This document shows positions 41,558 through 63,066 of a DNA stretch of 64,000 nucleotides, piece by piece. The notes beneath the pieces are model-generated. The model was not told the DNA's origin, ran no database searches, and saw only the letters and a list, made by a program, of their open reading frames with translations. Within the stretch, counting starts at the first letter, position 1, and each line of letters opens with the position of its first letter. The DNA is from a virus (Duplodnaviria; Caudoviricetes): IMG/VR virus record IMGVR_UViG_3300044655_001017. The stretch is one strand, 5' to 3'. The translations under genes were made by a program, and so were the position numbers.

Positions 41558-42153
41558 AGTATGTTGCACGCTGTAGTTGTTTAGTAAGTGCATATTATAG
41601 CACGCTACACAAAAAATGCAAGCATTATTTTTACAAACAATAACCACACACAACCACCTATCCATAACCCCAATTTTCAAATATCTCACAGCGGGGCCTT
41701 TATAAAAGTGGTCACTTATGGCAAATGGATACAAGCGGTAAGCACTAACGCAAATTTGCGTTTTAAGCGTTGTTTGTTGTGTACTGCTATAGTTGCATTG
41801 CTTAGTATATAAACGCGTATTGTGTACACGTTAACGCGCAAGTTTTAGCAATGTAAATTATAAATGCTAAGTGTATTTTACACGCGCACGACAAATATTA
41901 AAAGTTTACAGCGGGGTATTGATATACCGGTTGCTCATTATGCTATACTATAGTATAATATTGGTATATTGAAACGTTGGTAAGATGGTAAAGAGGTTGA
42001 GGGCAGAGATAAGGGAAAGCCCGGTCCATTGCATACTGGATTCCGGGCTTTGGGCATACTATGTAAGTATGTTGTATGGTTGGTGAACAAATGCTACTAC
42101 CCATCTGCCCACCTGAGGTCTTTAGTCTTTACAGCGGGGCCTTTCTATAGGTC

Positions 42154-42231
42154 CTACTTTGTTTTGCGTCTAATTACTCGACGGCATGCGATTGTACTTT
42201 TTTTGGTTGCGCGATCGGATCTTCTTGCCAT
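42154..42231 (-). CDS. 25-aa basic peptide MARRSDRATKKSTIACRRVIRRKTK
   Basis: Promoter at 42278-42305, GGAGA RBS; absent from ORF track. Confidence 0.45.
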   Translation of the reverse strand: MARRSDRATKKSTIACRRVIRRKTK

Positions 42232-42338
42232 GTTGTTCTCCAGTGTTGTTGTAAAAAAGTATTTAACGTTTTAACTATTATACTATAGTGTTAAAGTAAA
42301 TGCAAGCACTTTTTACAGTGCTTGCATTGTGTTATTGT

Positions 42339-42698
42339 TTAATTAACAGTGCTATTTTGCACTTGTTTAACATACTTATTAAATGTTTTTTTAGTAACAC
42401 ATTTTATGTAAGCGTTGTTAATTTGCATTTGCGTTAAATTAGCGTTATTTGCTAGCGTTACTGTATAGCTAACACTGTAATTGCTAGCAAAGTTAATGTT
42501 AGCAACAAAAGCACTGCTAACATAGCATAACACATAATTTTTAGCTGCTTTGTATATTGTACGCTTTGCGTGTTTTTGCTTTGTTGCTATTACTTTGTTA
42601 TTAGCTACATAAGCGTTAAGCACTTGTAACATAGCTTGTTGCGTTGCTTTGTTACTGTTTTTTTGCGCTTGTTTGCGCGTTGCTGTAATTGTTTGCAT
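42339..42698 (-). CDS. Early protein (119 aa) with no Asp, Glu, Gly, Pro or Trp
   Basis: Own promoter (42765-42792) and terminator (42299-42328). Confidence 0.6.
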   Translation of the reverse strand: MQTITATRKQAQKNSNKATQQAMLQVLNAYVANNKVIATKQKHAKRTIYKAAKNYVLCYVSSAFVANINFASNYSVSYTVTLANNANLTQMQINNAYIKCVTKKTFNKYVKQVQNSTVN

Positions 42699-42805
42699 AA
42701 TATACACACTATAGTTAAATTGTTAAAAAGCGTATGTTAAACGTAATTGCTTAACACAGTGCATATTATACACGTTTGTGTACAATATGCAAGCGTTATT
42801 TTTAA

Positions 42806-42982
42806 TTATTTTAGCAGTGCATCAAACGCTCCGCAAAACCCTGCAAACGCTATTGTTATCGGAGTAGCAACCAGCATCCACGTTACCGCGTCCACCATGA
42901 AGTTCATAACTCCATATTGCGTGTTACGCGCGTTTGCTTGTTTGTTTAAAAAATTTTGTACTGTTTGTTGTTTAGTTTGCAT
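42806..42982 (-). CDS. Small early membrane protein (58 aa)
   Basis: Promoter 43019-43046; hydrophobic C-half. Confidence 0.55.
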   Translation of the reverse strand: MQTKQQTVQNFLNKQANARNTQYGVMNFMVDAVTWMLVATPITIAFAGFCGAFDALLK

Positions 42983-43309
42983 AGTAGTAAGCACGCTGTT
43001 GTTGTTTAGTAAGTGCATAGTATAGCACGTTTAAAAATAATTGCAAGCTTTATTTGTATATTGTTTTCCGGTTGCCCAACACCTGCGAAGCCGGGGGGGG
43101 GGGGTGGTTGGTCGGTCTGTCCGATTGCCTAGCGGTCTAGTCCGGCTCTGTGGTGTGCATAGTATAGCACGTTTGTGTTGTAATTGCAAGCACTTTTTTA
43201 TTTAATTTTAGCATAGTAGTTTGCACGCTGTAGTTGTTTAAGTAGTGCATAGTATAGCATAGTTAAAACAAAAACGCAAGCACTTTTTACAGTGCTTGCG
43301 CTTGCTATG

Positions 43310-43693
43310 TTATTTAAGCACTGCTATTATTTGCACGTTATTAGTGCTTAATTCGTCTTGTGCATTGCTTTGCTCTTGTGCATTAAACTTATTTACAAAA
43401 GCTTGCATTGCACTATTTTGTTGCTCGTTATGATGTTCGCCTTGTTGTAGTGCAACAAGTGTTGCAGCTAATTCCGTGCATTGCACGTTTAAAGTGTAAA
43501 ATACTATATCGCTATGCTCTTTTGTTGCTAAAAGCGTGCTTACGCGTGCTTGCGCTGTTTTATCTGTAAAGCGTACTTTATAACCTATTGTCGCTTTAAC
43601 GTGCAAGCTTGCGCCTACTGCTATTACTTTTTTAGTGCTTGCGTTAATGCTGTTAACTACAATGTTTTGCACGCTAATGTTGCTGTTTGTCAT
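43310..43693 (-). CDS. Early protein, KVRF...HSDI family, copy 2
   Basis: GGAGCG RBS, tandem promoters, terminator 43274-43300. Confidence 0.7.
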   Translation of the reverse strand: MTNSNISVQNIVVNSINASTKKVIAVGASLHVKATIGYKVRFTDKTAQARVSTLLATKEHSDIVFYTLNVQCTELAATLVALQQGEHHNEQQNSAMQAFVNKFNAQEQSNAQDELSTNNVQIIAVLK

Positions 43694-43975
43694 TTTCTCG
43701 CTCCGAGTGTTGCACTAAAATAGTGCTATTAGTTAATACTGCTGTTTGTTACTACAAGTGCTATTATACGCTGTTTATTTGCACTTGTAAAGCGTTTTTT
43801 TAAAATACTTTTAAAACGCTTTTTTGTTGCACTGCTTTACTACAAAAACTATTATACGCTTTTTTGCGTAAATGTAAAGCGTTTTTTTATTTTATTTTTT
43901 GCTTGCATTTACTGTTTTATTGTGTTATAATAGCGCAAGCGTAAAGCCCGCGCTACCGGTTCTCTCTATACCGCC

Positions 43976-44173
43976 TTACCTCATATCGCTGTCCGCCGCT
44001 TTATCACAGCGTGTCGCATATCCGGTGAGCACCGACTCATTCAACTTATCGAGGAGTTGAACTTCCATTGCCCGGTGTTGTTGGCACTCAGCTAGTGTTG
44101 GATATATGAATGTGTTATCAATTTCCTGCGCCCCAATAAACATCATCACTTTCAATATATATAATGCTTCCAT
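43976..44173 (-). CDS. Small early protein (65 aa)
   Basis: Promoter 44221-44249, GGAGCA RBS. Confidence 0.6.
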   Translation of the reverse strand: MEALYILKVMMFIGAQEIDNTFIYPTLAECQQHRAMEVQLLDKLNESVLTGYATRCDKAADSDMR

Positions 44174-44264
44174 TGTTCTTGCTCCGCTTGTTACGTTAGC
44201 TTTATTGCTAACTTGCATATAGTATAGCAAACTATTAAACTATATGCAAGTGTTTTGTTTTCGA

Positions 44265-44438
44265 CTAGTCCACTAATGCACTTGCTCTAAGATCCACAAA
44301 GTTCGCATACTTCATTGTGTCTTTTGTTTCTCTGCGCTCACGTAGTAGTGCAGTCCGGGCACGCTCGACTTCTCTGCGGGTCTGTACACCAATTAGTCTT
44401 GCGCTCAACACTGCCGTATATTCTTGTACCGGTTTCAT
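44265..44438 (-). CDS. Small basic early protein (57 aa, MKPVQEYTAV...)
   Basis: AGGAG RBS; absent from ORF track. Confidence 0.55.
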   Translation of the reverse strand: MKPVQEYTAVLSARLIGVQTRREVERARTALLRERRETKDTMKYANFVDLRASALVD

Positions 44439-44501
44439 TCTATGCTCCTAATGGTTTCAAAAGTTCGTTGTTGTCAGCACGTCCATGTGCCCTGTGTTAG
44501 T

Positions 44502-44801
44502 TTATAGTCCGTACATTTCAGCTACGCTGTTTGCCACACGTCCGTCGTTACCCCATTGTACTTTAATGCAACCCGGATGTTCATTGCCCAGTGCTGCCAA
44601 CTTAGCAAGTGCCAATTCCCAGTTGTTTAGTTTGTCTACTGGTTTCGGAGCGTCAGCACTTGTAAAGTAGTTAGCTGGTGGTACCTTACGTTCCGGAACA
44701 TTGCTTTTACTTGTTTTCACTTTGCCGCCTGCTTCCAAAAACGCTTGTACTGCATTGTTTGTTGCTGTGTTTTTTGCTTGTTTGTTTGTATTAGTAAACA
44801 T
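44502..44801 (-). CDS. Early protein with SutA-like RNAP-binding motif
   Basis: NAVQAFLEAGGKVKTS. Confidence 0.55.
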   Translation of the reverse strand: MFTNTNKQAKNTATNNAVQAFLEAGGKVKTSKSNVPERKVPPANYFTSADAPKPVDKLNNWELALAKLAALGNEHPGCIKVQWGNDGRVANSVAEMYGL

Positions 44802-44976
44802 AATTTGCACGCTGTAGTAGTGTTAACAGTTAAACGTTATTGCTTAACTTGCATATAGTATAGCAAAGCAAAACTGGTATGTAAAGCGTTTTTTTTAAGT
44901 GTTGTTTCCATTGTGCCCACGCGTGTACACATAAACAGCGGGGCCTTTTCGGCACTTCCCTGTGCCGTTGTATCCG

Positions 44977-45318
44977 TTATAGTCCCGATCCGCATAAGCA
45001 GTTATACACAAACTCAGCATCCTGTAATGCCACATTGTTTATGTAATCCACTAAGTCCTTGTGCTCCTCTACTTCCTCTACAAACGCTTGTACCGCAGCA
45101 TCATCGTTCCACAAGTCATCATGTGCTTCGTAATGTCTGTTGTATATTGTTACCATTTGCGCAATTATATGCACCGGATGTTCAGTAGTGCCCCACTCCT
45201 CCGCATAGTTCTCGTCCGCCAACATAAACACTGTACTTGTTACGCTGGGAGTTAGCGGGTACTTGCTTGTGTTTGCGTTTGCTGTGTTAATTTTTGTTGC
45301 TGTAGTAGTATTTTGCAT
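44977..45318 (-). CDS. Early acidic protein, tandem duplicate A
   Basis: YNRHYEAHDDLWNDDAA shared with 45487..45834. Confidence 0.7.
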   Translation of the reverse strand: MQNTTTATKINTANANTSKYPLTPSVTSTVFMLADENYAEEWGTTEHPVHIIAQMVTIYNRHYEAHDDLWNDDAAVQAFVEEVEEHKDLVDYINNVALQDAEFVYNCLCGSGL

Positions 45319-45486
45319 AGTTAGCACGCTGTAGTTATAAGTTAGCTTAATTGCTAACTTGTACATATTATAGCACGTTTAAACATTTTGTAAAGCGTTT
45401 TTTTAAGTTTTGTTTTCGCTGTTACCATACGCGTGTACACATAGCAGCGGGGCCTTTCCGAGCACGTCCATGTGCTCTGTGTTATC

Positions 45487-45834
45487 TTACAAGCCCGAGC
45501 AACATAAGCAATCATACACAAACACTGTGTTCTGTAATGCCACATTGTTTATGTAATCCACTAACTTCGCATTGTCCTCAACTTCCTCTATACACGCTTG
45601 CATCGCAGCATCATCGTTCCACAAGTCATCATGTGCTTCGTAATGTCTGTTGTATATCTCTGCTATCTTTAATACTATGTGTGTCGGATGTGTCGTTGTG
45701 CTCCACTCCTCCGCAAAGCTCGCATCCGCCAACAGTGCCAGCACACTTGTTTTGCTCGGATAGTACCCGGGCAATTTGCTTGTGTTTACGTTTTGTGTGT
45801 TAATTTTTGTTGCTGTAGTAGTATTAGTTTGCAT
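45487..45834 (-). CDS. Early acidic protein, tandem duplicate B
   Basis: Paralogue of 44977..45318 including promoter and 3' elements. Confidence 0.7.
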   Translation of the reverse strand: MQTNTTTATKINTQNVNTSKLPGYYPSKTSVLALLADASFAEEWSTTTHPTHIVLKIAEIYNRHYEAHDDLWNDDAAMQACIEEVEDNAKLVDYINNVALQNTVFVYDCLCCSGL

Positions 45835-46013
45835 AATAAGCACGCTGTAGTAGTGTTAACAGTTAAGCGTTATTGCTTAACTTGTACATAGTATAACACG
45901 TTTAAACATTTTGTAAAGCGGTATTTTAGAGTATTGTTTCCGACATAACCGGGGGGGGGGTGGTCGGTCGGTCTGTCAGATTGCTTGGCACTTCCCTGTG
46001 CTCGATATATCAG

Positions 46014-46385
46014 TTATGCCATTATGCTCGCTACTTCAGTGTATCGTTGTTTCAATCTTTCGATCATATGGAGTAAGTCGACATTAAAGACTAAGTCATA
46101 TACATCGCTTTCCGTTGTACTCACTATACCAATTGCACTCGTGTAATGGAGTTGTTCGACTATAGTCGTTACAGTCGTTACATCTATTTTCAATTGTTTC
46201 GATACTTCGGCTAGTAACACTTTCGAAACTGTCTTGCGATCTCTGTCCGCTAGTCTATGAAACCCTTTTGCCAACATCCTTGCAACATCGGTATTTTGGC
46301 GTATCGTTGCACCAATGCTATCGTTATGCTCGTGTAACTCGTTTAAAAACTTAATATGGTTTCTCAATACTGTTTGGATAATCAT
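46014..46385 (-). CDS. Hypothetical early protein
   Basis: 123 aa, GGAGCG RBS. Confidence 0.65.
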   Translation of the reverse strand: MIIQTVLRNHIKFLNELHEHNDSIGATIRQNTDVARMLAKGFHRLADRDRKTVSKVLLAEVSKQLKIDVTTVTTIVEQLHYTSAIGIVSTTESDVYDLVFNVDLLHMIERLKQRYTEVASIMA

Positions 46386-46450
46386 TATGCGCTCCAGTTA
46401 ATCAGTTAAGTACGCGCATACTCGATATATGCGCGTGTAAACAGCGGGGT

Positions 46451-46717
46451 CTATTGGCGTGCTTTGATTGCCGATTGCACCTGCTTGTTCAACAGCCCAA
46501 TTGCCGCTAGCTCCTCTTTAGCTTGTTCCCATGTGTATCGTTGTTTCTCTACTACAACTACGCGGGGAGTATGGACTTGTGATACTGTAGTGCGTCCTCT
46601 GCGTCCTGTTTTAGTTGTTTTAATTGCTCCTCCGGTTGCTAAGAACATTGCCACGCGAGCCGCTAACTCCGCTGCTTGTTGTTGTTTAACTTCGTTGTTC
46701 ATAATACCTGTTGCCAT
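46451..46717 (-). CDS. Early protein with SutA-like RNAP-binding motif
   Basis: LAARVAMFLATGGAIKTT; GGAGCG RBS. Confidence 0.55.
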   Translation of the reverse strand: MATGIMNNEVKQQQAAELAARVAMFLATGGAIKTTKTGRRGRTTVSQVHTPRVVVVEKQRYTWEQAKEELAAIGLLNKQVQSAIKARQ

Positions 46718-46878
46718 TATACACGCTCCGCTTTATCGTTAATGTCAGTTTCTTCAGTTTGCTCACAATCCCAACATGGTTCAAGCTCATCTGTTTCCAT
46801 GTTGTATAGTACAGTCAAGTCCCCACACGTAGTGCAATACGCGCGTAGTGGGTAAGTGTTTTTGTATTGTACTTGCAT
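46717..46878 (-). CDS. Small Zn-ribbon-like protein (53 aa)
   Basis: CTTC...CWDC; promoter 46912-46940. Confidence 0.55.
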   Translation of the reverse strand: MQVQYKNTYPLRAYCTTCGDLTVLYNMETDELEPCWDCEQTEETDINDKAERV

Positions 46879-46983
46879 AATTTTTACACGCTGTTTTGTT
46901 AATGTGTGCATATTATAGCATTGTAACACGCGCATTGCAAGTAGTTTGTTAACCGCAATGCGCGTGTACATAAGCAGCGGGGC

Positions 46984-47400
46984 CTATACGGTAGTTACGA
47001 GCAACAAGTTGTCCAACACATCCGCTTTAGCTCTGTATACCATGTTGCCGTGTCTCGTATGCTCAATTACAATCCCATTTGCCTCACACCACAAGTCCAA
47101 ACGCGCTGCTCTTAAGCTCACTTTATCTTTAAACTGTGGTTTGTTGACTTTAACGGCAATAAACTTTTTTCTGTAGTTCATAAACACGTTGCTCTGTATA
47201 TACACATCCTCAATGTGTGCTAACAACGCTTCCCCTGCGCTCAATTGCACTAAGCTATACAAACTCTCATTCTCAGCGTCTCTGCGTTTAATATCCTCTA
47301 AGCACACGTAAGCTGGAAGTTTGACGTCATCCGATGTGTGTGATACAGCGTGTACAATAGCAGTAGCTGTGTTTTTGAGTAATTTAGTAGTTGTTGACAT
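46984..47400 (-). CDS. Hypothetical early protein
   Basis: 138 aa, GGAGCG RBS, own promoter. Confidence 0.65.
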   Translation of the reverse strand: MSTTTKLLKNTATAIVHAVSHTSDDVKLPAYVCLEDIKRRDAENESLYSLVQLSAGEALLAHIEDVYIQSNVFMNYRKKFIAVKVNKPQFKDKVSLRAARLDLWCEANGIVIEHTRHGNMVYRAKADVLDNLLLVTTV

Positions 47401-47505
47401 ATGATACGCTCCGAAAGTTATGTTAAGTTTTAAACAGTTAGCTGTTTTGCTAACTTGTACATATTATAGCAAACTAAGTACAAGTTAGCAAGTGATATTT
47501 TTGAA

Positions 47506-47694
47506 CTATAGTTCCACTAGCTCGCCGCGTGCTACTGCGTCCGCAGCTTCTAGTTCCTCTTTATAGAACTTGTTGATAGCATTGTTTGTTTCGAGATACG
47601 ATTTGGAGTTTTTGGCTTGTGTACGCAATTGGCGTGTGAGCATGTTAATGTATTTGATACGCGCGGCGCTTGTGATGTAAAGTATTTTTTGCAT
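47506..47694 (-). CDS. Small early protein, NSKxYLE family
   Basis: NSKSYLETNNAINKFY; paralogous to 48161..48418. Confidence 0.6.
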   Translation of the reverse strand: MQKILYITSAARIKYINMLTRQLRTQAKNSKSYLETNNAINKFYKEELEAADAVARGELVEL

Positions 47695-47793
47695 AATATA
47701 CACGCTATAGTTATAAGTTAGCTTAATTGCTAACTTGTACATATTATAGCAAACTATATACAAGTTAGCAAATGGTATTTTAGAACTTTGTTT

Positions 47794-48066
47794 TCACCCT
47801 TCCGGATAGCAACCAGCTTCCATCATTGCATAGATAACTCGTTCTCTTGGTAGAGTATCTTGATATACCAGCGAGTTGATTAACTGATCGTAGTCGCCGC
47901 TTTTCATATAACTGATTAAACACTTTTGGTTGTACTTGCCATCTTCAATTGCCAAGTCCATAAAGTCCCACTCATCTGCTTCGGCATACTCTTTTGCTTG
48001 AGCATTGAAGTCGGTAACACATTGTTTGAGGGTAGCGATTACAACAGGATTAGTAGTGTTTGGCAT
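47794..48066 (-). CDS. Hypothetical early protein
   Basis: 90 aa, own promoter. Confidence 0.65.
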   Translation of the reverse strand: MPNTTNPVVIATLKQCVTDFNAQAKEYAEADEWDFMDLAIEDGKYNQKCLISYMKSGDYDQLINSLVYQDTLPRERVIYAMMEAGCYPEG

Positions 48067-48160
48067 AGTAGTTTACACGCTGTAGTAGTTAAGTAAGTGT
48101 ATATTATAAAGCATTGCAGGCGGTTTGTAAAGAACTTTGTTAACCGCCTGCCGGTATATA

Positions 48161-48418
48161 CTACGCGGCTTCTAATTGCGCCAATGCAAACGCTTCATCA
48201 AGTGCCATCTCCGCAATGTATATACGGTTTAACTGAGTGTTGGCTTCCAGGTAAGCTTTGGAGTTAACACGCGCGGCACTGATTTGAGAGCGGAGCGAAC
48301 GGATTTGGCGGGCGGTCGCTTCCGATACAAGGCGCTTTGGCTTTTGGGCAGCTGCCTCCGCTTCGGCTTGCTTGTGTGCTTTAAGTTTGGCTGCTAACGA
48401 TACATTGTATTTTGACAT
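48161..48418 (-). CDS. Small early protein, NSKxYLE family
   Basis: NSKAYLEANTQLNRIY. Confidence 0.6.
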   Translation of the reverse strand: MSKYNVSLAAKLKAHKQAEAEAAAQKPKRLVSEATARQIRSLRSQISAARVNSKAYLEANTQLNRIYIAEMALDEAFALAQLEAA

Positions 48419-48587
48419 AGTAGTTTACACGCTTGTTGTTAAGTAAGTGCATATTATACTATAGTATGCACTGGTTGTCAAGAACTTTATATTCACCCGC
48501 GCTCGCACACGCGTAAACAGCGGGGTCTATCCGGGGGGGGGGAGGTCGGTCGGATTGGCCGGTTATTCGCTGCCCCCAATCTATCGG

Positions 48588-48761
48588 TTACTCATCGTCC
48601 CATATGTCGTCCCAGTCTATTGGTGTGTAGGCATCATCTATATCGTCTCCCCAGTCTTCGTCCATTCCTGCAAAGAACTCTTTTCGCTCTTGCATTAAGG
48701 TCGCACCGCGTGTTTGAAGTATTGCTAACTGCTCTCTTAAGTTTTGCTCTATAGCTTCCAT
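48588..48761 (-). CDS. 57-aa protein with highly acidic Asp/Trp tail
   Basis: ...DEDWGDDIDDAYTPIDWDDIWDDE; GGAGC RBS; absent from ORF track. Confidence 0.6.
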   Translation of the reverse strand: MEAIEQNLREQLAILQTRGATLMQERKEFFAGMDEDWGDDIDDAYTPIDWDDIWDDE

Positions 48762-48825
48762 AACAGCTCCGACTAATTAGTTAAGTCGCCCCGCCATACA
48801 CACATATGCAGCGGGGCCTATTACT

Positions 48826-49179
48826 CTATGCTACTGCTAACTCAGCTTCCAGTGCATCTGCTGCTGCCGCGTAGTCCACTTCCTCAACTACTACACTTTG
48901 TGGAGCAACCACTGTGTACTTGCTAAAGAAGTCATCGAATGCTTGTTGTGCATCTAAGTCCTCTAACTCTGTGTAGTTCTTAATTGCCATTGCTGCATCA
49001 TACTTGGTCATTGCACCGTCTAGCGCAAACAATCTAATGTCTGTGTGTCCATTGCGTTGTAACACTTTCACACGATCCGCTTTGTTAGCAAATCGTACTT
49101 TGTACACACCATTTAAGTTGCTGATGCCAGCGAAAGTAAATGTTTTTTCAACTGCAGTAACTGTGATTAAGTTTGACAT
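48826..49179 (-). CDS. Early protein, KVRF...HTDI family, copy 3
   Basis: KVRFANKADRVKVLQRNGHTDIRL; GGAGCG RBS. Confidence 0.7.
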   Translation of the reverse strand: MSNLITVTAVEKTFTFAGISNLNGVYKVRFANKADRVKVLQRNGHTDIRLFALDGAMTKYDAAMAIKNYTELEDLDAQQAFDDFFSKYTVVAPQSVVVEEVDYAAAADALEAELAVA

Positions 49180-49273
49180 ATTGTACGCTCCAAAAAATAG
49201 AAAAGTTAAGTTGTTTTACTGCTAGTTAGCTAACGCGCTTGTTAGCTAACTTGTTACATATTATACAGCATTT

Positions 49274-49507
49274 TTAAAACATTGCAAGCATTTTGTTTTC
49301 TCTTGCTTCAAGTATTGCATCAATACGCGCCTCAACACTCTCTGCGCTCTCAAGTGTTGTCCAGCCGCCGTTGTTGTGGCGTCCATCTTGTACTGAAGTT
49401 TCCATAATTCCTGTGTTTCTATTTTTATACTCCGACACTGTGATAGTAGTGTTAAAGTAGATAGTAACGATGTTGTTGCTTGTTGTAGTAATTTTTAATT
49501 TATACAT
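49274..49507 (-). CDS. Hypothetical early protein (77 aa)
   Basis: Own promoter, GGAGCG RBS; 3' end carries next -35 box. Confidence 0.6.
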   Translation of the reverse strand: MYKLKITTTSNNIVTIYFNTTITVSEYKNRNTGIMETSVQDGRHNNGGWTTLESAESVEARIDAILEARENKMLAMF

Positions 49508-49577
49508 AATACGCGCTCCGCATTGTTGTTTAACTTGTACATAGTATAGCAAACTTATTTTGGTTTGTAAAGAAGTT

Positions 49578-49667
49578 TTAAATCACTAGCTCATACCAGT
49601 TCAATACAGCGATTGCGCTCAATAATACGATAGTAGTGAATACTGCGAATGTGTGTATAAACGACAT
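49578..49667 (-). CDS. 29-aa hydrophobic peptide
   Basis: TTGACA promoter and AGGAGC RBS; single TM-like stretch. Confidence 0.45.
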   Translation of the reverse strand: MSFIHTFAVFTTIVLLSAIAVLNWYELVI

Positions 49668-49737
49668 TTTGTTTGCTCCTCATATATATAGTACACGCAT
49701 AGTATAGCAAACTACATACAGGTTGTCAACTGGTTTG

Positions 49738-50304
49738 TTACTCGGTGTATGCCGCCATTACCAATCCCACATAGTTCTGAGTCTCCGGATATGGTGGAAC
49801 CTTATTCTTATGCCGCATCACCGCATGCTCGCCCGCATTGTAACCGGCTACTGCTAGTTTGGTATCTTTGAATGTATCGAGCAAGAACCTTAGGAACCGA
49901 ACTCCACCTTCAATGTTCTGTCTTTCATCCATCCGATCACTCACTCCAAATCGCTCTGCCGTTGCCGGCATCAGCTGCATCAATCCAGCCGCACCTTTCT
50001 TACTTACAGCCGATTTGCGATATGTACTTTCCGTTTTAATGACTGCATGTACCAACTTCTCATCCACTCCATACTTCTTTGCAGCGATATGAACATAGTG
50101 ATTGACTTCCCATCGGGTTAATGGTTTGGTCTCCGGTTTCGCTACTATAGTAGTATGAACAACTGGTTTGGCTGCAGTATTGATCTCAACCGGATGATCT
50201 GTTAACCAAACTCGCCCATCCGCTCCCGTATATCTATATACATCCGCATTCACCGGCATTACTACTATAGTAGCGAGAATGGCAGCGCGGATCATTTGGC
50301 GCAC
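49738..50304 (-). CDS. Lytic transglycosylase (SLT) with signal peptide and DUF4124-like N-domain
   Basis: AVIKTES catalytic Glu, GAAGLMQLMP, AGYNAGE, PPYPETQNYV; DVYRYTGADGRVWLTD. Confidence 0.92.
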   Translation of the reverse strand: MRQMIRAAILATIVVMPVNADVYRYTGADGRVWLTDHPVEINTAAKPVVHTTIVAKPETKPLTRWEVNHYVHIAAKKYGVDEKLVHAVIKTESTYRKSAVSKKGAAGLMQLMPATAERFGVSDRMDERQNIEGGVRFLRFLLDTFKDTKLAVAGYNAGEHAVMRHKNKVPPYPETQNYVGLVMAAYTE

Positions 50305-50588
50305 TCTGCTGCGAACTTAACCATTGCTGCATACTCTGGATTGGCTACAGCGGTGACTACATGAGTAAGTAAATGAGCAATCATTGTAATCCCACCGATC
50401 CATGCTACGATCATTACACATGCATAGGTAAACGCATCCGATCCATTGAACTCATCTTTTAATAACTTAAACAGATAGTATGATCCAGCTAATACTCCAG
50501 ATATTACTACTATAGCGGCAATGTCTGGAATGGTGTCTATAATAGCTTGCTTTGCCAATAACTCTTGTGGTACATTGCATAACTTCAT
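50292..50588 (-). CDS. Two-TM membrane protein
   Basis: 98 aa, own promoter, GGAGCG RBS. Confidence 0.6.
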   Translation of the reverse strand: MKLCNVPQELLAKQAIIDTIPDIAAIVVISGVLAGSYYLFKLLKDEFNGSDAFTYACVMIVAWIGGITMIAHLLTHVVTAVANPEYAAMVKFAAECAK

Positions 50589-50989
50589 AACGCGCTCCGC
50601 AGTTGTTGTTTAACTTGTACATATTATAGCATACACAGCGGGGTCTGTAAAGAACTTTGTTACTCGTATACGCCCACTTGTATGTGCGCGTGTAGCGTGT
50701 TATATTATAAGCGCATAGCATACTATAGTATAAGTATGCTCACGCACTATAGCGCATTTATACGCGATATACGCTATGATACACTATAGTATAATAATAA
50801 GCGCATATACACATATGAGTAACTATGCACAGCGGGGCCTTTTATAGGTCCAGGACTCGATAATAACTCGTCATCTTCGGTTTTTGGCCCGCGTCGTTAG
50901 CGGTCTGCAACACCATGATTTTGCCGTTTTTCACGTTTATAGACCGACCTAGTACCAGAGTACAGGGTCCGGTTAAAAAGAATAAGAAA

Positions 50990-51104
50990 AAGCTCACTTT
51001 AGGGAGCGAATCTAAAGTGAGCTTATAGAGTTACTATAGTATAGGGAGCGAATCTATACTATAGTATATAGAGTATAGTTGGGAGCGAATCAACTATACT
51101 CTAT
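50990..51104. ncRNA. Three tandem hairpins with identical 11-nt loop (candidate regulatory RNA element)
   Basis: Perfect 12-13 bp stems of different sequence around GGGAGCGAATC at 51002, 51044, 51081. Confidence 0.6.
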
Positions 51105-51121
51105 TCATATGCGCGTTATTA

Positions 51122-52000
51122 TTATCTATGTGGGCGCATACAAGTTACAGAAGCTACTGCTTCCCAGTTAGTTGGCATTGCTTTACGCAAATCTGCTACT
51201 TTAAGAACCATACGCAAACTCAATTCACGCATTTTCTTTCTGTGTGTATCGATGTAGTTGAGGATCTCTTCAGCTTCATCTTCTTGGAATTCATACTTGT
51301 CTAGCATACCGTCGCTTACGATTTGCTTAATACGCAACATCTTTTCGCGTTCTGTGTCTATAGTAAGATCTAAGTAGTGGCAACGCGACTCTAATGCTTC
51401 TAAATGATCTTGCAATTTCTTGCTACGAACATGATCAAACTTAACATTTGTAATGAATATACAGCCGCCTTCAAAGTCAAAACTATTTGGAATACCTGCG
51501 TCCTTTAGTATGCGTGACTCTGTGTGCCAACTGATAGTACGCTTACGCCCAGTATCCAATGCTGCTTTGAGCAAGTTGAGCGCAATATCATCAAACAATA
51601 CACTATCGCAGTCGTCAAACACTACGATACACTTCTTGTCCTTATAGTCCCACAGCATTTGATATAAACATAATGCACTGATGTTACCTTTTGCTATAGT
51701 GTACTTCTTTAAGGTTTCATCTTGTGCTACATTGGCGAACACATCATAACGCGATAACACTGTTTCTACACCGTGTGATTTGCCTACTCCAGGTGGTCCA
51801 CTTACGATCATAGCGCGAACATCACCTTTCTTTACTGCACGAGTCATATCATCTAGTATGGCAAACCGTGTGCGCAACCGTTCTACAATCTCTTCGTCCG
51901 TTTCGTGTGATACATGTTCAGCCGGTCTTTGCGCTATAGTACGGTTGGTCTTGATTGTGTCTACGGTGATCATTTGTGGTCTTGCTACTGTTTGTTGCAT
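51122..52000 (-). CDS. AAA+ ATPase
   Basis: SGPPGVGKS, VFDDCD, IFITN, ALESRC; TTGACA promoter at 52033-52061. Confidence 0.85.
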   Translation of the reverse strand: MQQTVARPQMITVDTIKTNRTIAQRPAEHVSHETDEEIVERLRTRFAILDDMTRAVKKGDVRAMIVSGPPGVGKSHGVETVLSRYDVFANVAQDETLKKYTIAKGNISALCLYQMLWDYKDKKCIVVFDDCDSVLFDDIALNLLKAALDTGRKRTISWHTESRILKDAGIPNSFDFEGGCIFITNVKFDHVRSKKLQDHLEALESRCHYLDLTIDTEREKMLRIKQIVSDGMLDKYEFQEDEAEEILNYIDTHRKKMRELSLRMVLKVADLRKAMPTNWEAVASVTCMRPHR

Positions 52001-52065
52001 ACTTGCTCCGCATTGTGTGTTAGTAAGTGTTTATTATACTATAGTATAGTATGACTGTCAACTGG

Positions 52066-52251: not shown

Positions 52252-52500
52252 TGTTGCGCTCCTACGTTGTTTAACTGTTATGCACATTATAACACACTGC
52301 TTTGAACATTGCAAGCACTTTTTTGGCACAATTTTACCACTGTAATACAACTGTAATGATATAGTAGGAATGGGTGGTTGGGCGGCATAGCTACAATAAA
52401 TACCCCATTGTTTTCCACAAAACCCCTCATATCCCCTGTAACCACCATAGGCCTCCTCTATTGTTTACCAAATAGTGCCACGTGTGCCGCAGGCCTAGCT

Positions 52501-62880: not shown

Positions 62881-63066
62881 AACGCGCTCCTAAATTACTA
62901 TTAAAGTGATTACTAATACTACTAAAATTGCATCCACAATAGCAAACCCTAATGTGTAGTCGCCTGATGGAAATAACTTGTTGCGTAACGATTGCATATT
63001 GTGCTCCTAATTGTTTGTTAGTAAGCGCATAGTATAACAAACTATGCGCTGGTATGCAAGTGGTAA

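Follow-up and report, generated by a model that had tools for sequence, protein, structure and literature searches.

Among the closest described systems are the cuckoo/alpha-r14 sRNAs of Alphaproteobacteria (RSs0680a-d, SmelC397/C14), in which two to four adjacent hairpins carry one identical, pyrimidine-rich loop motif, CCUCCUCCC, that resembles the anti-Shine-Dalgarno (anti-SD) sequence (PMC4615179). Their stems vary freely through compensatory changes, and their copy number and genomic context are modular (PMC4615179). In S. aureus, RNAIII and the Rsa RNAs use C-rich loops with UCCC, including that of a terminator hairpin, for seed pairing at the SDs of multiple mRNAs (PMC2837412, PMC2790875). 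Another S. aureus example is icaR, whose 3′-UTR contains an anti-SD motif that complements the mRNA's own SD (PMC3868564). In phage T4, early genes are marked by an SD-based signal that is read by a phage factor, the nuclease RegB, and the class is switched off; the RegB/S1 site is the 11-nt GGAGRAYARAA, in which C is almost absent at positions 5-6 (PMC1702504).

A hairpin array with features of each of these systems is found in an uncultured lake jumbo phage, an AT-rich myovirus with a tail sheath of 1126 aa whose DNA has been seen in many metagenomes of lake water. The stretch of DNA analyzed (64,000 nucleotides; hereafter the window) carries small minus-strand genes from 41 to 64 kb, with many sigma-70-like promoters between them. 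Within this region lies a gene for an AAA ATPase (51122..52000, minus strand), identified from the ORF list and by homology as a homolog of T4 NrdC.10 (phrog_1250). Judged by this gene, the closest cultured relative is PA5oct, whose copy is 49% identical to that of the window, compared with 36% for the copy of KVP40. The public sequencing runs found to contain the phage are DNA, and in the single lake metatranscriptome the contig matches were short and divergent only, which makes them uninformative on expression.

Three inverted repeats with 100% complementary arms and unrelated stem sequences lie back to back at 50990-51104, beginning 17 nt past the ATPase stop on the minus strand. The arms are separated by 9 nt in all three repeats, and each repeat encloses GGGAGCGAATC on the plus strand. 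Inverted-repeat search and folding define, in transcription order on the minus strand, hairpin 1 (51068..51104; 14-bp stem, arms 51068-51081/51091-51104), hairpin 2 (51032..51066; 13-bp stem, arms 51032-51044/51054-51066) and hairpin 3 (50990..51024; 13-bp stem, arms 50990-51002/51012-51024). The loop of hairpin 1 comprises the 9 nt AUUCGCUCC at 51082-51090, closed by a G-C pair, and the same loop recurs at 51045-51053 in hairpin 2 and at 51003-51011 in hairpin 3. The 11-mer GGGAGCGAATC occurs exactly three times in the 64 kb, each time in this array, whereas the chance expectation of the exact 11-mer is about 0.03. The minus-strand array is predicted to fold into three hairpins at -51.1 kcal/mol (z = -7.6 versus shuffled sequences), with loops that are fully accessible in the ensemble (opening energy 0.01 kcal/mol); the plus strand likewise forms three hairpins, at -55.3 kcal/mol. 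The UUCG in the loop conforms to YUNR, the U-turn motif of antisense loops that pair rapidly. The original prediction, made from the letters of the window, had described three hairpins with different stems and one loop just past the ATPase stop on the minus strand, and both the repeats and their placement are confirmed here. It had also matched the loop to the 3′ end of 16S rRNA at 9 of 13 positions; the arithmetic is correct, but the last letters of the match, UA, are stem bases that are unconserved in relatives. Such a resemblance is to be expected of any anti-SD-like sequence and is thus not independent evidence.

The array appears to close a transcription unit. Consensus scanning places a sigma-70-type early promoter, TTGACA-17-TATAAT (12/12), at 52033..52061 on the minus strand, from which the ATPase gene and the array would be transcribed together as a single RNA of about 1.05 kb. 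The next early promoter, TTTACA-17-TGnTATAAT (11/12), lies at 50623..50651 on the same strand, so that the array stands at the end of one early unit. Hairpin 3 is stable and is followed directly on its 3′ side by the U-rich tract UUUCUUAUUCUUUUU (50973..50989, minus strand), the arrangement of an intrinsic terminator; its counterpart in most relatives is an uninterrupted run of seven to nine U, and the lower stems there are rich in G+C. A simple terminator scanner missed hairpin 3 because it accepts only loops of 8 nt or fewer. The simplest reading of this organization would be one early transcript consisting of promoter, ATPase gene, three hairpins and stop. Orientation of the genes, U-runs and stem mismatches all agree that the folded RNA is likely the minus strand: the run of A that precedes the array in the GGGAGCGAATC orientation becomes a run of U after the array on the transcribed strand, and interior stem mismatches of relatives, read on the gene strand, are G-U in nine cases versus A-C in two.

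The hairpins belong to a large family. When IMG/VR was scanned for the 11-mer in two copies 18-45 nt apart, 57 loci were returned: three are simple tandem repeats, and 54 have two or three hairpins that share the motif but differ in their stems. Additional copies, including single modules and wider spacings, were recovered by fetching loci via the ATPase protein. Altogether the motif occurs on about 120 different stems in more than 100 uncultured phage contigs. In 45 of 54 loci the ATPase stop and the array are no more than about 100 nt apart, with a few arrays overlapping the stop codon, and the array is always on the strand of the gene, so that the RNA loop reads GAUUCGCUCCC. This loop is identical in 120/120 unique hairpin contexts, while the stem columns show two to four Watson-Crick pair types at 7-10 positions within each geometric class. 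Comparison across related phages, a check proposed together with the original prediction, shows co-varying stems around a constant loop, and conservation of the loop on unrelated stems extends from three stems to about 120. One-mismatch versions of the 11-mer numbered only three across all fetched loci, none of them between stem arms, and the two-mismatch versions flanked by a helix of at least 7 bp almost all represent the ribosome site AGGAGCGAAAC read as its reverse complement. In whole contigs (88-278 kb), exact copies number only two or three.

The genes and structures that surround the motif differ among relatives. The ATPase homologs are 59-70% identical to that of the window in most loci, and 87% and 99% identical in its two close relatives. 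Stems with bulges and G-U pairs are found in relatives, and in modules outside the clade of the window, internal loops (CCAAC...GGYAA or RUAARYCC...GG) are conserved above co-varying lower stems. Other copies lie 3′ of genes for two further proteins, one of 75 aa and the other a conserved winged-helix protein of 90 aa (Pfam HTH_39, phrog_4973). The gene for the latter is the second that regularly precedes the loop motif (L001:3085-3354(-), also L013, L014, L021, L034, L035, L037, L052 and L209-L238); its ribosome site is AGAGGAAA, and no homolog of the protein is present in the window. In one subclade (L091-L097), a small Cys-rich gene (GCQY-GPE...C...KSYC..H) is found directly 3′ of the ATPase gene, and the array is elsewhere in the locus. 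In PA5oct and KVP40, ordinary terminators stand 3′ of the nrdC.10 homologs.

Searches for relatives of the element beyond these phages gave no further members. Rfam cmscan of positions 40000-64000 of the window, at E values up to 1, produced no match at the hairpin locus, and a full-text literature search found no published description of the hairpin-loop element. A collection of representative genomes from bacteria and archaea (185,579 species), scanned for the paired motif, yielded 88 matches. The 80 of these that were examined are tandem direct repeats or REP-like sequences with identical flanks, none beside an ATPase homolog, and on this basis the bacterial and archaeal matches were treated as unrelated. 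The REP-like family, TCGCGAATAGCCTTCGGCT-GATTCGCTCCC-ACAGGG, contains the 11-mer many times per genome in Thalassolituus and Oceanospirillaceae genomes (L105, L110, L129, L133, L142, L165 and L170) and likewise appears to be unrelated to the phage element. The phage hairpins, 120 distinct ones from over 100 contigs, have no Rfam model and so could enter curation as an RNA family of their own, irrespective of mechanism.

The loop has a counterpart in the ribosome sites of early genes. The original prediction had listed nine genes of the window preceded by GGAGCG, and all nine sites are present, 4-8 nt before an ATG. In the ribosome-site scan these sites, all on the minus strand, are 43699-43704, 46390-46395, 46724-46729, 47407-47412, 49186-49191, 49514-49519, 52257-52262, 62885-62890 and, as an example of a target, 50593..50598, which belongs to the early gene next to the array (ATG at 50588). 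One further GGAGCG in the window precedes a TTG start. Among the 29 GGAG-type sites of the minus strand, 18 are GGAGCR, comprising ten GGAGCG and eight GGAGCA. The ATPase gene itself has GGAGCA (52004-52009), which matches GGAGCG at five of six positions. By contrast, the late genes (the structural and replication genes on the plus strand of the window) have AGGA or GGAGA and never GGAGCG.

The tag is stricter in relatives than in the window, where matches extend over 6 nt and eight genes have GGAGCA. In relatives, counted without the clade of the window itself, GGAGCG makes up 238 of 437 ribosome-site-like GGAGNN sequences (54% of early genes), and 238 of the 275 GGAGCG on the same strand lie at ribosome-site distance. 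A logo from 214 unique contexts reads A(86%)-GGAGCG-A(79%)-A(68%), with a gap from GGAG to ATG that is mostly 6 nt. By these counts GGAGCG is a tag of early genes throughout the clade, with the consensus aGGAGCGAA, and the ATPase gene of relatives bears it in 30 of 31 distinct contexts. A 96%-complete relative of 356 kb, from which five 20-kb stretches were fetched, has a block of ten GGAGCG genes, with the ATPase gene and two hairpins at its end, and the fetched stretches contained no tagged sites in the 35 kb downstream of these hairpins. At a second hairpin locus of the same phage, the 11-mer is found exactly once, with a second GGAGCGAA 40 nt away and tagged genes upstream. In PA5oct, 49 kb around the nrdC.10 homolog contained no motif, and 0 of 18 GGAG-type sites there were GGAGCG.

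The consensus tag aGGAGCGAA is complementary to eight contiguous bases of the loop, 5′-UUCGCUCC-3′. Predicted duplex energies are -13.3 kcal/mol for the consensus tag with the loop, compared with -7.9 kcal/mol for the same tag with the canonical 16S tail, and range from -10.0 to -12.7 kcal/mol for the GGAGCG sites of the window with the loop. Pairing with the canonical 16S tail leaves the CG of the tag unexplained.

If loop and tag pair, they should change together, and their joint change was examined in 79 loci picked by ATPase homology only. A crude contingency table of hexamers in hairpins was too noisy, as control hexamers scored as often as the real ones; loci were therefore scored by which anti-tag hexamer occurs within 250 nt 3′ of the ATPase stop. 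In the 36 loci whose dominant tag is GGAGCG, 14 have CGCTCC and 22 have none of the three anti-tags; in these 22 another gene is directly 3′ of the ATPase gene. Thus, wherever a GGAGCG-dominant locus has any anti-tag in this interval, it is CGCTCC (14/14). The four loci dominated by GAGGGC(A) all have GCCCTC, one of them with a single TGCTCC in addition, and a fifth locus of the same clade, L246, also has GCCCTC. The anti-tag of this clade is in or atop hairpins, some of them followed by a U-run (e.g., GUGCCCUCG in L246, L237 and L244). On the ATPase tree the GAGGGC(A) clade is monophyletic, GGAGCG with UCGCUCC is found in two clades, and clades that have no dominant tag mostly have no such loops. 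Judging from these loci, a sister clade has switched both partners, with the tag GAGGGCA and loops reading UGCCCUC.

A third group is less regular. Among 11 loci with the dominant tag GGAGCA, one (L202) has CGCTCC and ten have none of the anti-tags. The GGAGCAA clade is mixed: UUGCUCC loops, which are perfect complements, occur in L224, L254 and L255, the loop stays UUCGCUCC in L243, L257 and L261, and L202 combines GGAGCA sites with CGCUCC loops. A clean second switch to GGAGCAA/UUGCUCC was rejected on account of this mixture and of paired UUGCUCC sites in only one of five larger contigs. The joint change therefore amounts to one clean multi-base switch and one partial switch, and across these few independent events it lends real support to a link between tag and loop.

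These features set the element beside the systems described above without placing it in any of them. Similar to the cuckoo RNAs, it has adjacent hairpins (three in the window, two or three in relatives) that carry one identical pyrimidine-rich loop on stems that co-vary, in modular number and context. However, its loop is AUUCGCUCC rather than CCUCCUCCC, and together with the lack of an Rfam match this means that it is not a member of the cuckoo/alpha-r14 family. It also forms the 3′ end and terminator of a coding early transcript, whereas the cuckoo RNAs are free-standing chromosomal sRNA genes, and its predicted target is a private, class-specific extension of the SD, whereas theirs is the generic SD. 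RNAIII and the Rsa RNAs share with it C-rich loops, one of them in a terminator hairpin, and UCCC is found in the phage loop as well. RNAIII, however, is a bacterial effector of quorum sensing, its loops are heterogeneous and its secondary contacts long, while the phage array consists of three identical modules and is matched to one tag; for RNAIII there is experimental proof, whereas pairing by the phage loops is a prediction. In icaR a single motif serves a single gene, while the phage motif is repeated two or three times, recurs after other genes and matches a tag shared among the majority of early genes. The RegB system is similar in its logic of marking early genes at the SD and having a phage factor act on the class, yet its reader is a protein nuclease and the reader proposed here is an RNA loop. 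The tag itself was rejected as a RegB site, since positions 5 and 6 of GGAGCGAA are C and G, against the RegB rule (PMC1702504). No RegB homolog was found among the ten small neighboring ORFs scanned. What is new is the combination of a phage-borne element, a private tag of the early class, and pairs of tag and loop that are matched by clade.

The best reading of the locus, to which we assign a probability of roughly 60%, is an anti-RBS RNA embedded in a terminator that would pair with the start sites of early genes. An RNA of this kind had been suggested by the original prediction, and the comparative expectations that follow from it (an invariant loop, the strand, the tag and the joint switch) are what was found. 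The three hairpins would form the 3′ end of the early AAA-ATPase mRNA, transcribed from the minus strand, and each open 9-nt loop would display the complement of the private SD extension aGGAGCGAA. Hairpin 3 with its U-tract is predicted to terminate the transcript and should protect its 3′ end. The loops may then pair with early mRNAs at their tagged start sites, including that of the ATPase mRNA, and by occluding these sites could limit or time the translation of early genes, leaving the untagged late genes unaffected. Accumulation of the RNA, its pairing, a repressive effect, and action in cis or in trans are all steps that we infer from the arrangement of loops and tags.

Several observations weigh against this proposal. 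The element would be made from a strong early promoter alongside its presumed targets, which makes a simple late shut-off not obvious. Each array has two or three loops and each genome one or two arrays, against some 10-30 tagged sites. The untagged site of the winged-helix gene implies that strict self-regulation is not universal. Moreover, 11 of 11 nt and the flanking boxes (CCAAC...GGYAA) are invariant, which goes beyond what pairing needs, so that an additional protein reader or a structural constraint may exist. A wider form of the proposal, which we regard as tentative and place somewhat below even odds, is an orthogonal translational code for early genes in a freshwater jumbo-phage clade, in which private SD extensions and a co-transcribed loop array would act as a master switch or timer and the pairs GGAGCGAA/UUCGCUCC and GAGGGCA/UGCCCUC would co-evolve. 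If true, this code would be an RNA-based counterpart of T4 RegB. To our knowledge, the factors described for early-gene shut-off in T4-type phages are all proteins (RegB, RegA). Should the pairing be real, a phage RNA would control a whole temporal class of genes through a private ribosome-site tag, for which no description was found. The matched pairs, which differ between clades, would then be natural orthogonal translation switches and would also offer a signature by which early genes of uncultured jumbo phages could be called from sequence.

Other readings account for parts of this evidence. Under purely cis autoregulation, similar to that of icaR, the 3′ loops would pair only with the ribosome site or sites of their own transcript, capping translation or triggering decay without any effect in trans. 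The array is indeed physically linked to the ATPase gene in most loci, the ATPase site of relatives is tagged far more regularly than early genes generally, and in the near-complete relative tagged genes are found just upstream of each array. A circuit confined to one gene, however, leaves the tag shared by most early genes unexplained, and it fits poorly with the window, in which the ATPase site GGAGCA is a mismatch and tagged genes lie on both sides of the array under separate promoters, as well as with the second type of site, whose winged-helix gene carries the untagged AGAGGAAA; we consider it improbable. It is also rather doubtful that the loops are in essence recognition sites for a phage or host protein, such as a factor for termination, antitermination or mRNA stability or a processing nuclease, with a secondary match to the tag. 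Such a reader would explain why all 11 nt are invariant, even at positions that do not pair with the tag, why the boxes CCAAC/GGYAA and RUAARYCC/GG are conserved, and why the motif sits in terminators. It would not explain the 8-nt complementarity to the early tag or the joint switch to GAGGGCA/UGCCCUC in the sister clade, and no candidate RNA-binding gene is linked to the motif, whose neighbors vary among the ATPase, the winged-helix protein and the 75-aa protein. The CGCUC of the loop weakly recalls the core of boxA, a resemblance that was set aside as too short.

Two further readings move the function away from minus-strand RNA. An active plus-strand RNA would present loops reading GGGAGCGAAUC, copies of the tag that could serve as a decoy or sponge for the 30S subunit, a RegA-like repressor, a RegB-like nuclease or CsrA. 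These loops contain GGA and share 9 of 11 positions with the tag consensus AGGAGCGAAAC, folding of the plus strand is just as good (-55.3 kcal/mol), and a weak promoter-like TTGTAT-N17-TATATT lies at 50678-50706. Its -35 hexamer, however, matches at only three of six positions by eye, the consensus scan did not return it, every locus has all its flanking genes on the opposite strand, and in this orientation a run of A precedes the hairpins and no run of U follows them. The 9 to 2 excess of G-U over A-C mismatches likewise favors the minus strand, and in T4 RegB sites position 5 is hardly ever C (PMC1702504). A plus-strand function is accordingly very unlikely, and the CsrA/RsmA sponge offered as an alternative by the original prediction fares no better, having no supported plus-strand promoter or terminator and the wrong G-U pattern; the loops of the likely transcribed strand, AUUCGCUCC, contain no GGA. 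Equally hard to credit is its other alternative, DNA cruciforms, here taken to include single-strand hairpins for replication or packaging and sites for a DNA-binding protein that also recognizes GGAGCGAA. The perfect palindromic arms could extrude as cruciforms, and the same duplex 8-mer occurs in the loops and upstream of early genes. Yet a DNA element accounts for neither the U-run nor the match to ribosome sites: the bulged, G-U-containing stems of relatives and the one-sided U-run are typical of RNA, the tag keeps a fixed ribosome-site distance (mostly 6 nt from GGAG to ATG), and no origin-like iterons or AT-rich unwinding features were found.

Two chance likenesses in the hairpins were considered and rejected. 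The left arm and loop of hairpin 3 (50990-51012, plus strand) read CTCACTTTAGGGAG, a 13/14 match to the core of the T7 promoter; it was considered coincidental, being shared only by the close relatives of the window, while the other stems are unrelated. A likeness to the tRNA T-arm (GGUUCGAAUCC) was dismissed because the hairpin lacks an A58 equivalent and its loop is 9 nt long. A 51-aa ORF with a GTG start (50842-50997, minus strand) begins within the hairpin 3 stem. It matches no family and is retained in close relatives, where its conservation is uninformative on coding versus non-coding because the DNA there is nearly identical.

Additional elements occur near the array. The sequence GGTCGGTCTATAAA is found at 50936-50949 on the minus strand, about 25-40 nt past the terminator. 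It occurs nowhere else in the window, and both close relatives carry it with 100% conservation. Across relatives, 38 of 91 arrays are followed by a GGTCG(G/A) or CCGACC box, often with an ATA-rich hexamer after it. The GGTCGGTCTATAAA/GGTCG-type box may be a phage-specific promoter, perhaps for middle genes, or a factor site. Another sequence, CCCCGCTGTG, occurs eight times with at most one mismatch in 41687-50837, always on the minus strand, compared with 0.7 occurrences expected. One copy, at 50634-50643, is the spacer of the TTTACA/TATAAT early promoter, and CCCCGCTGTG looks like a conserved spacer element in a subset of early promoters.
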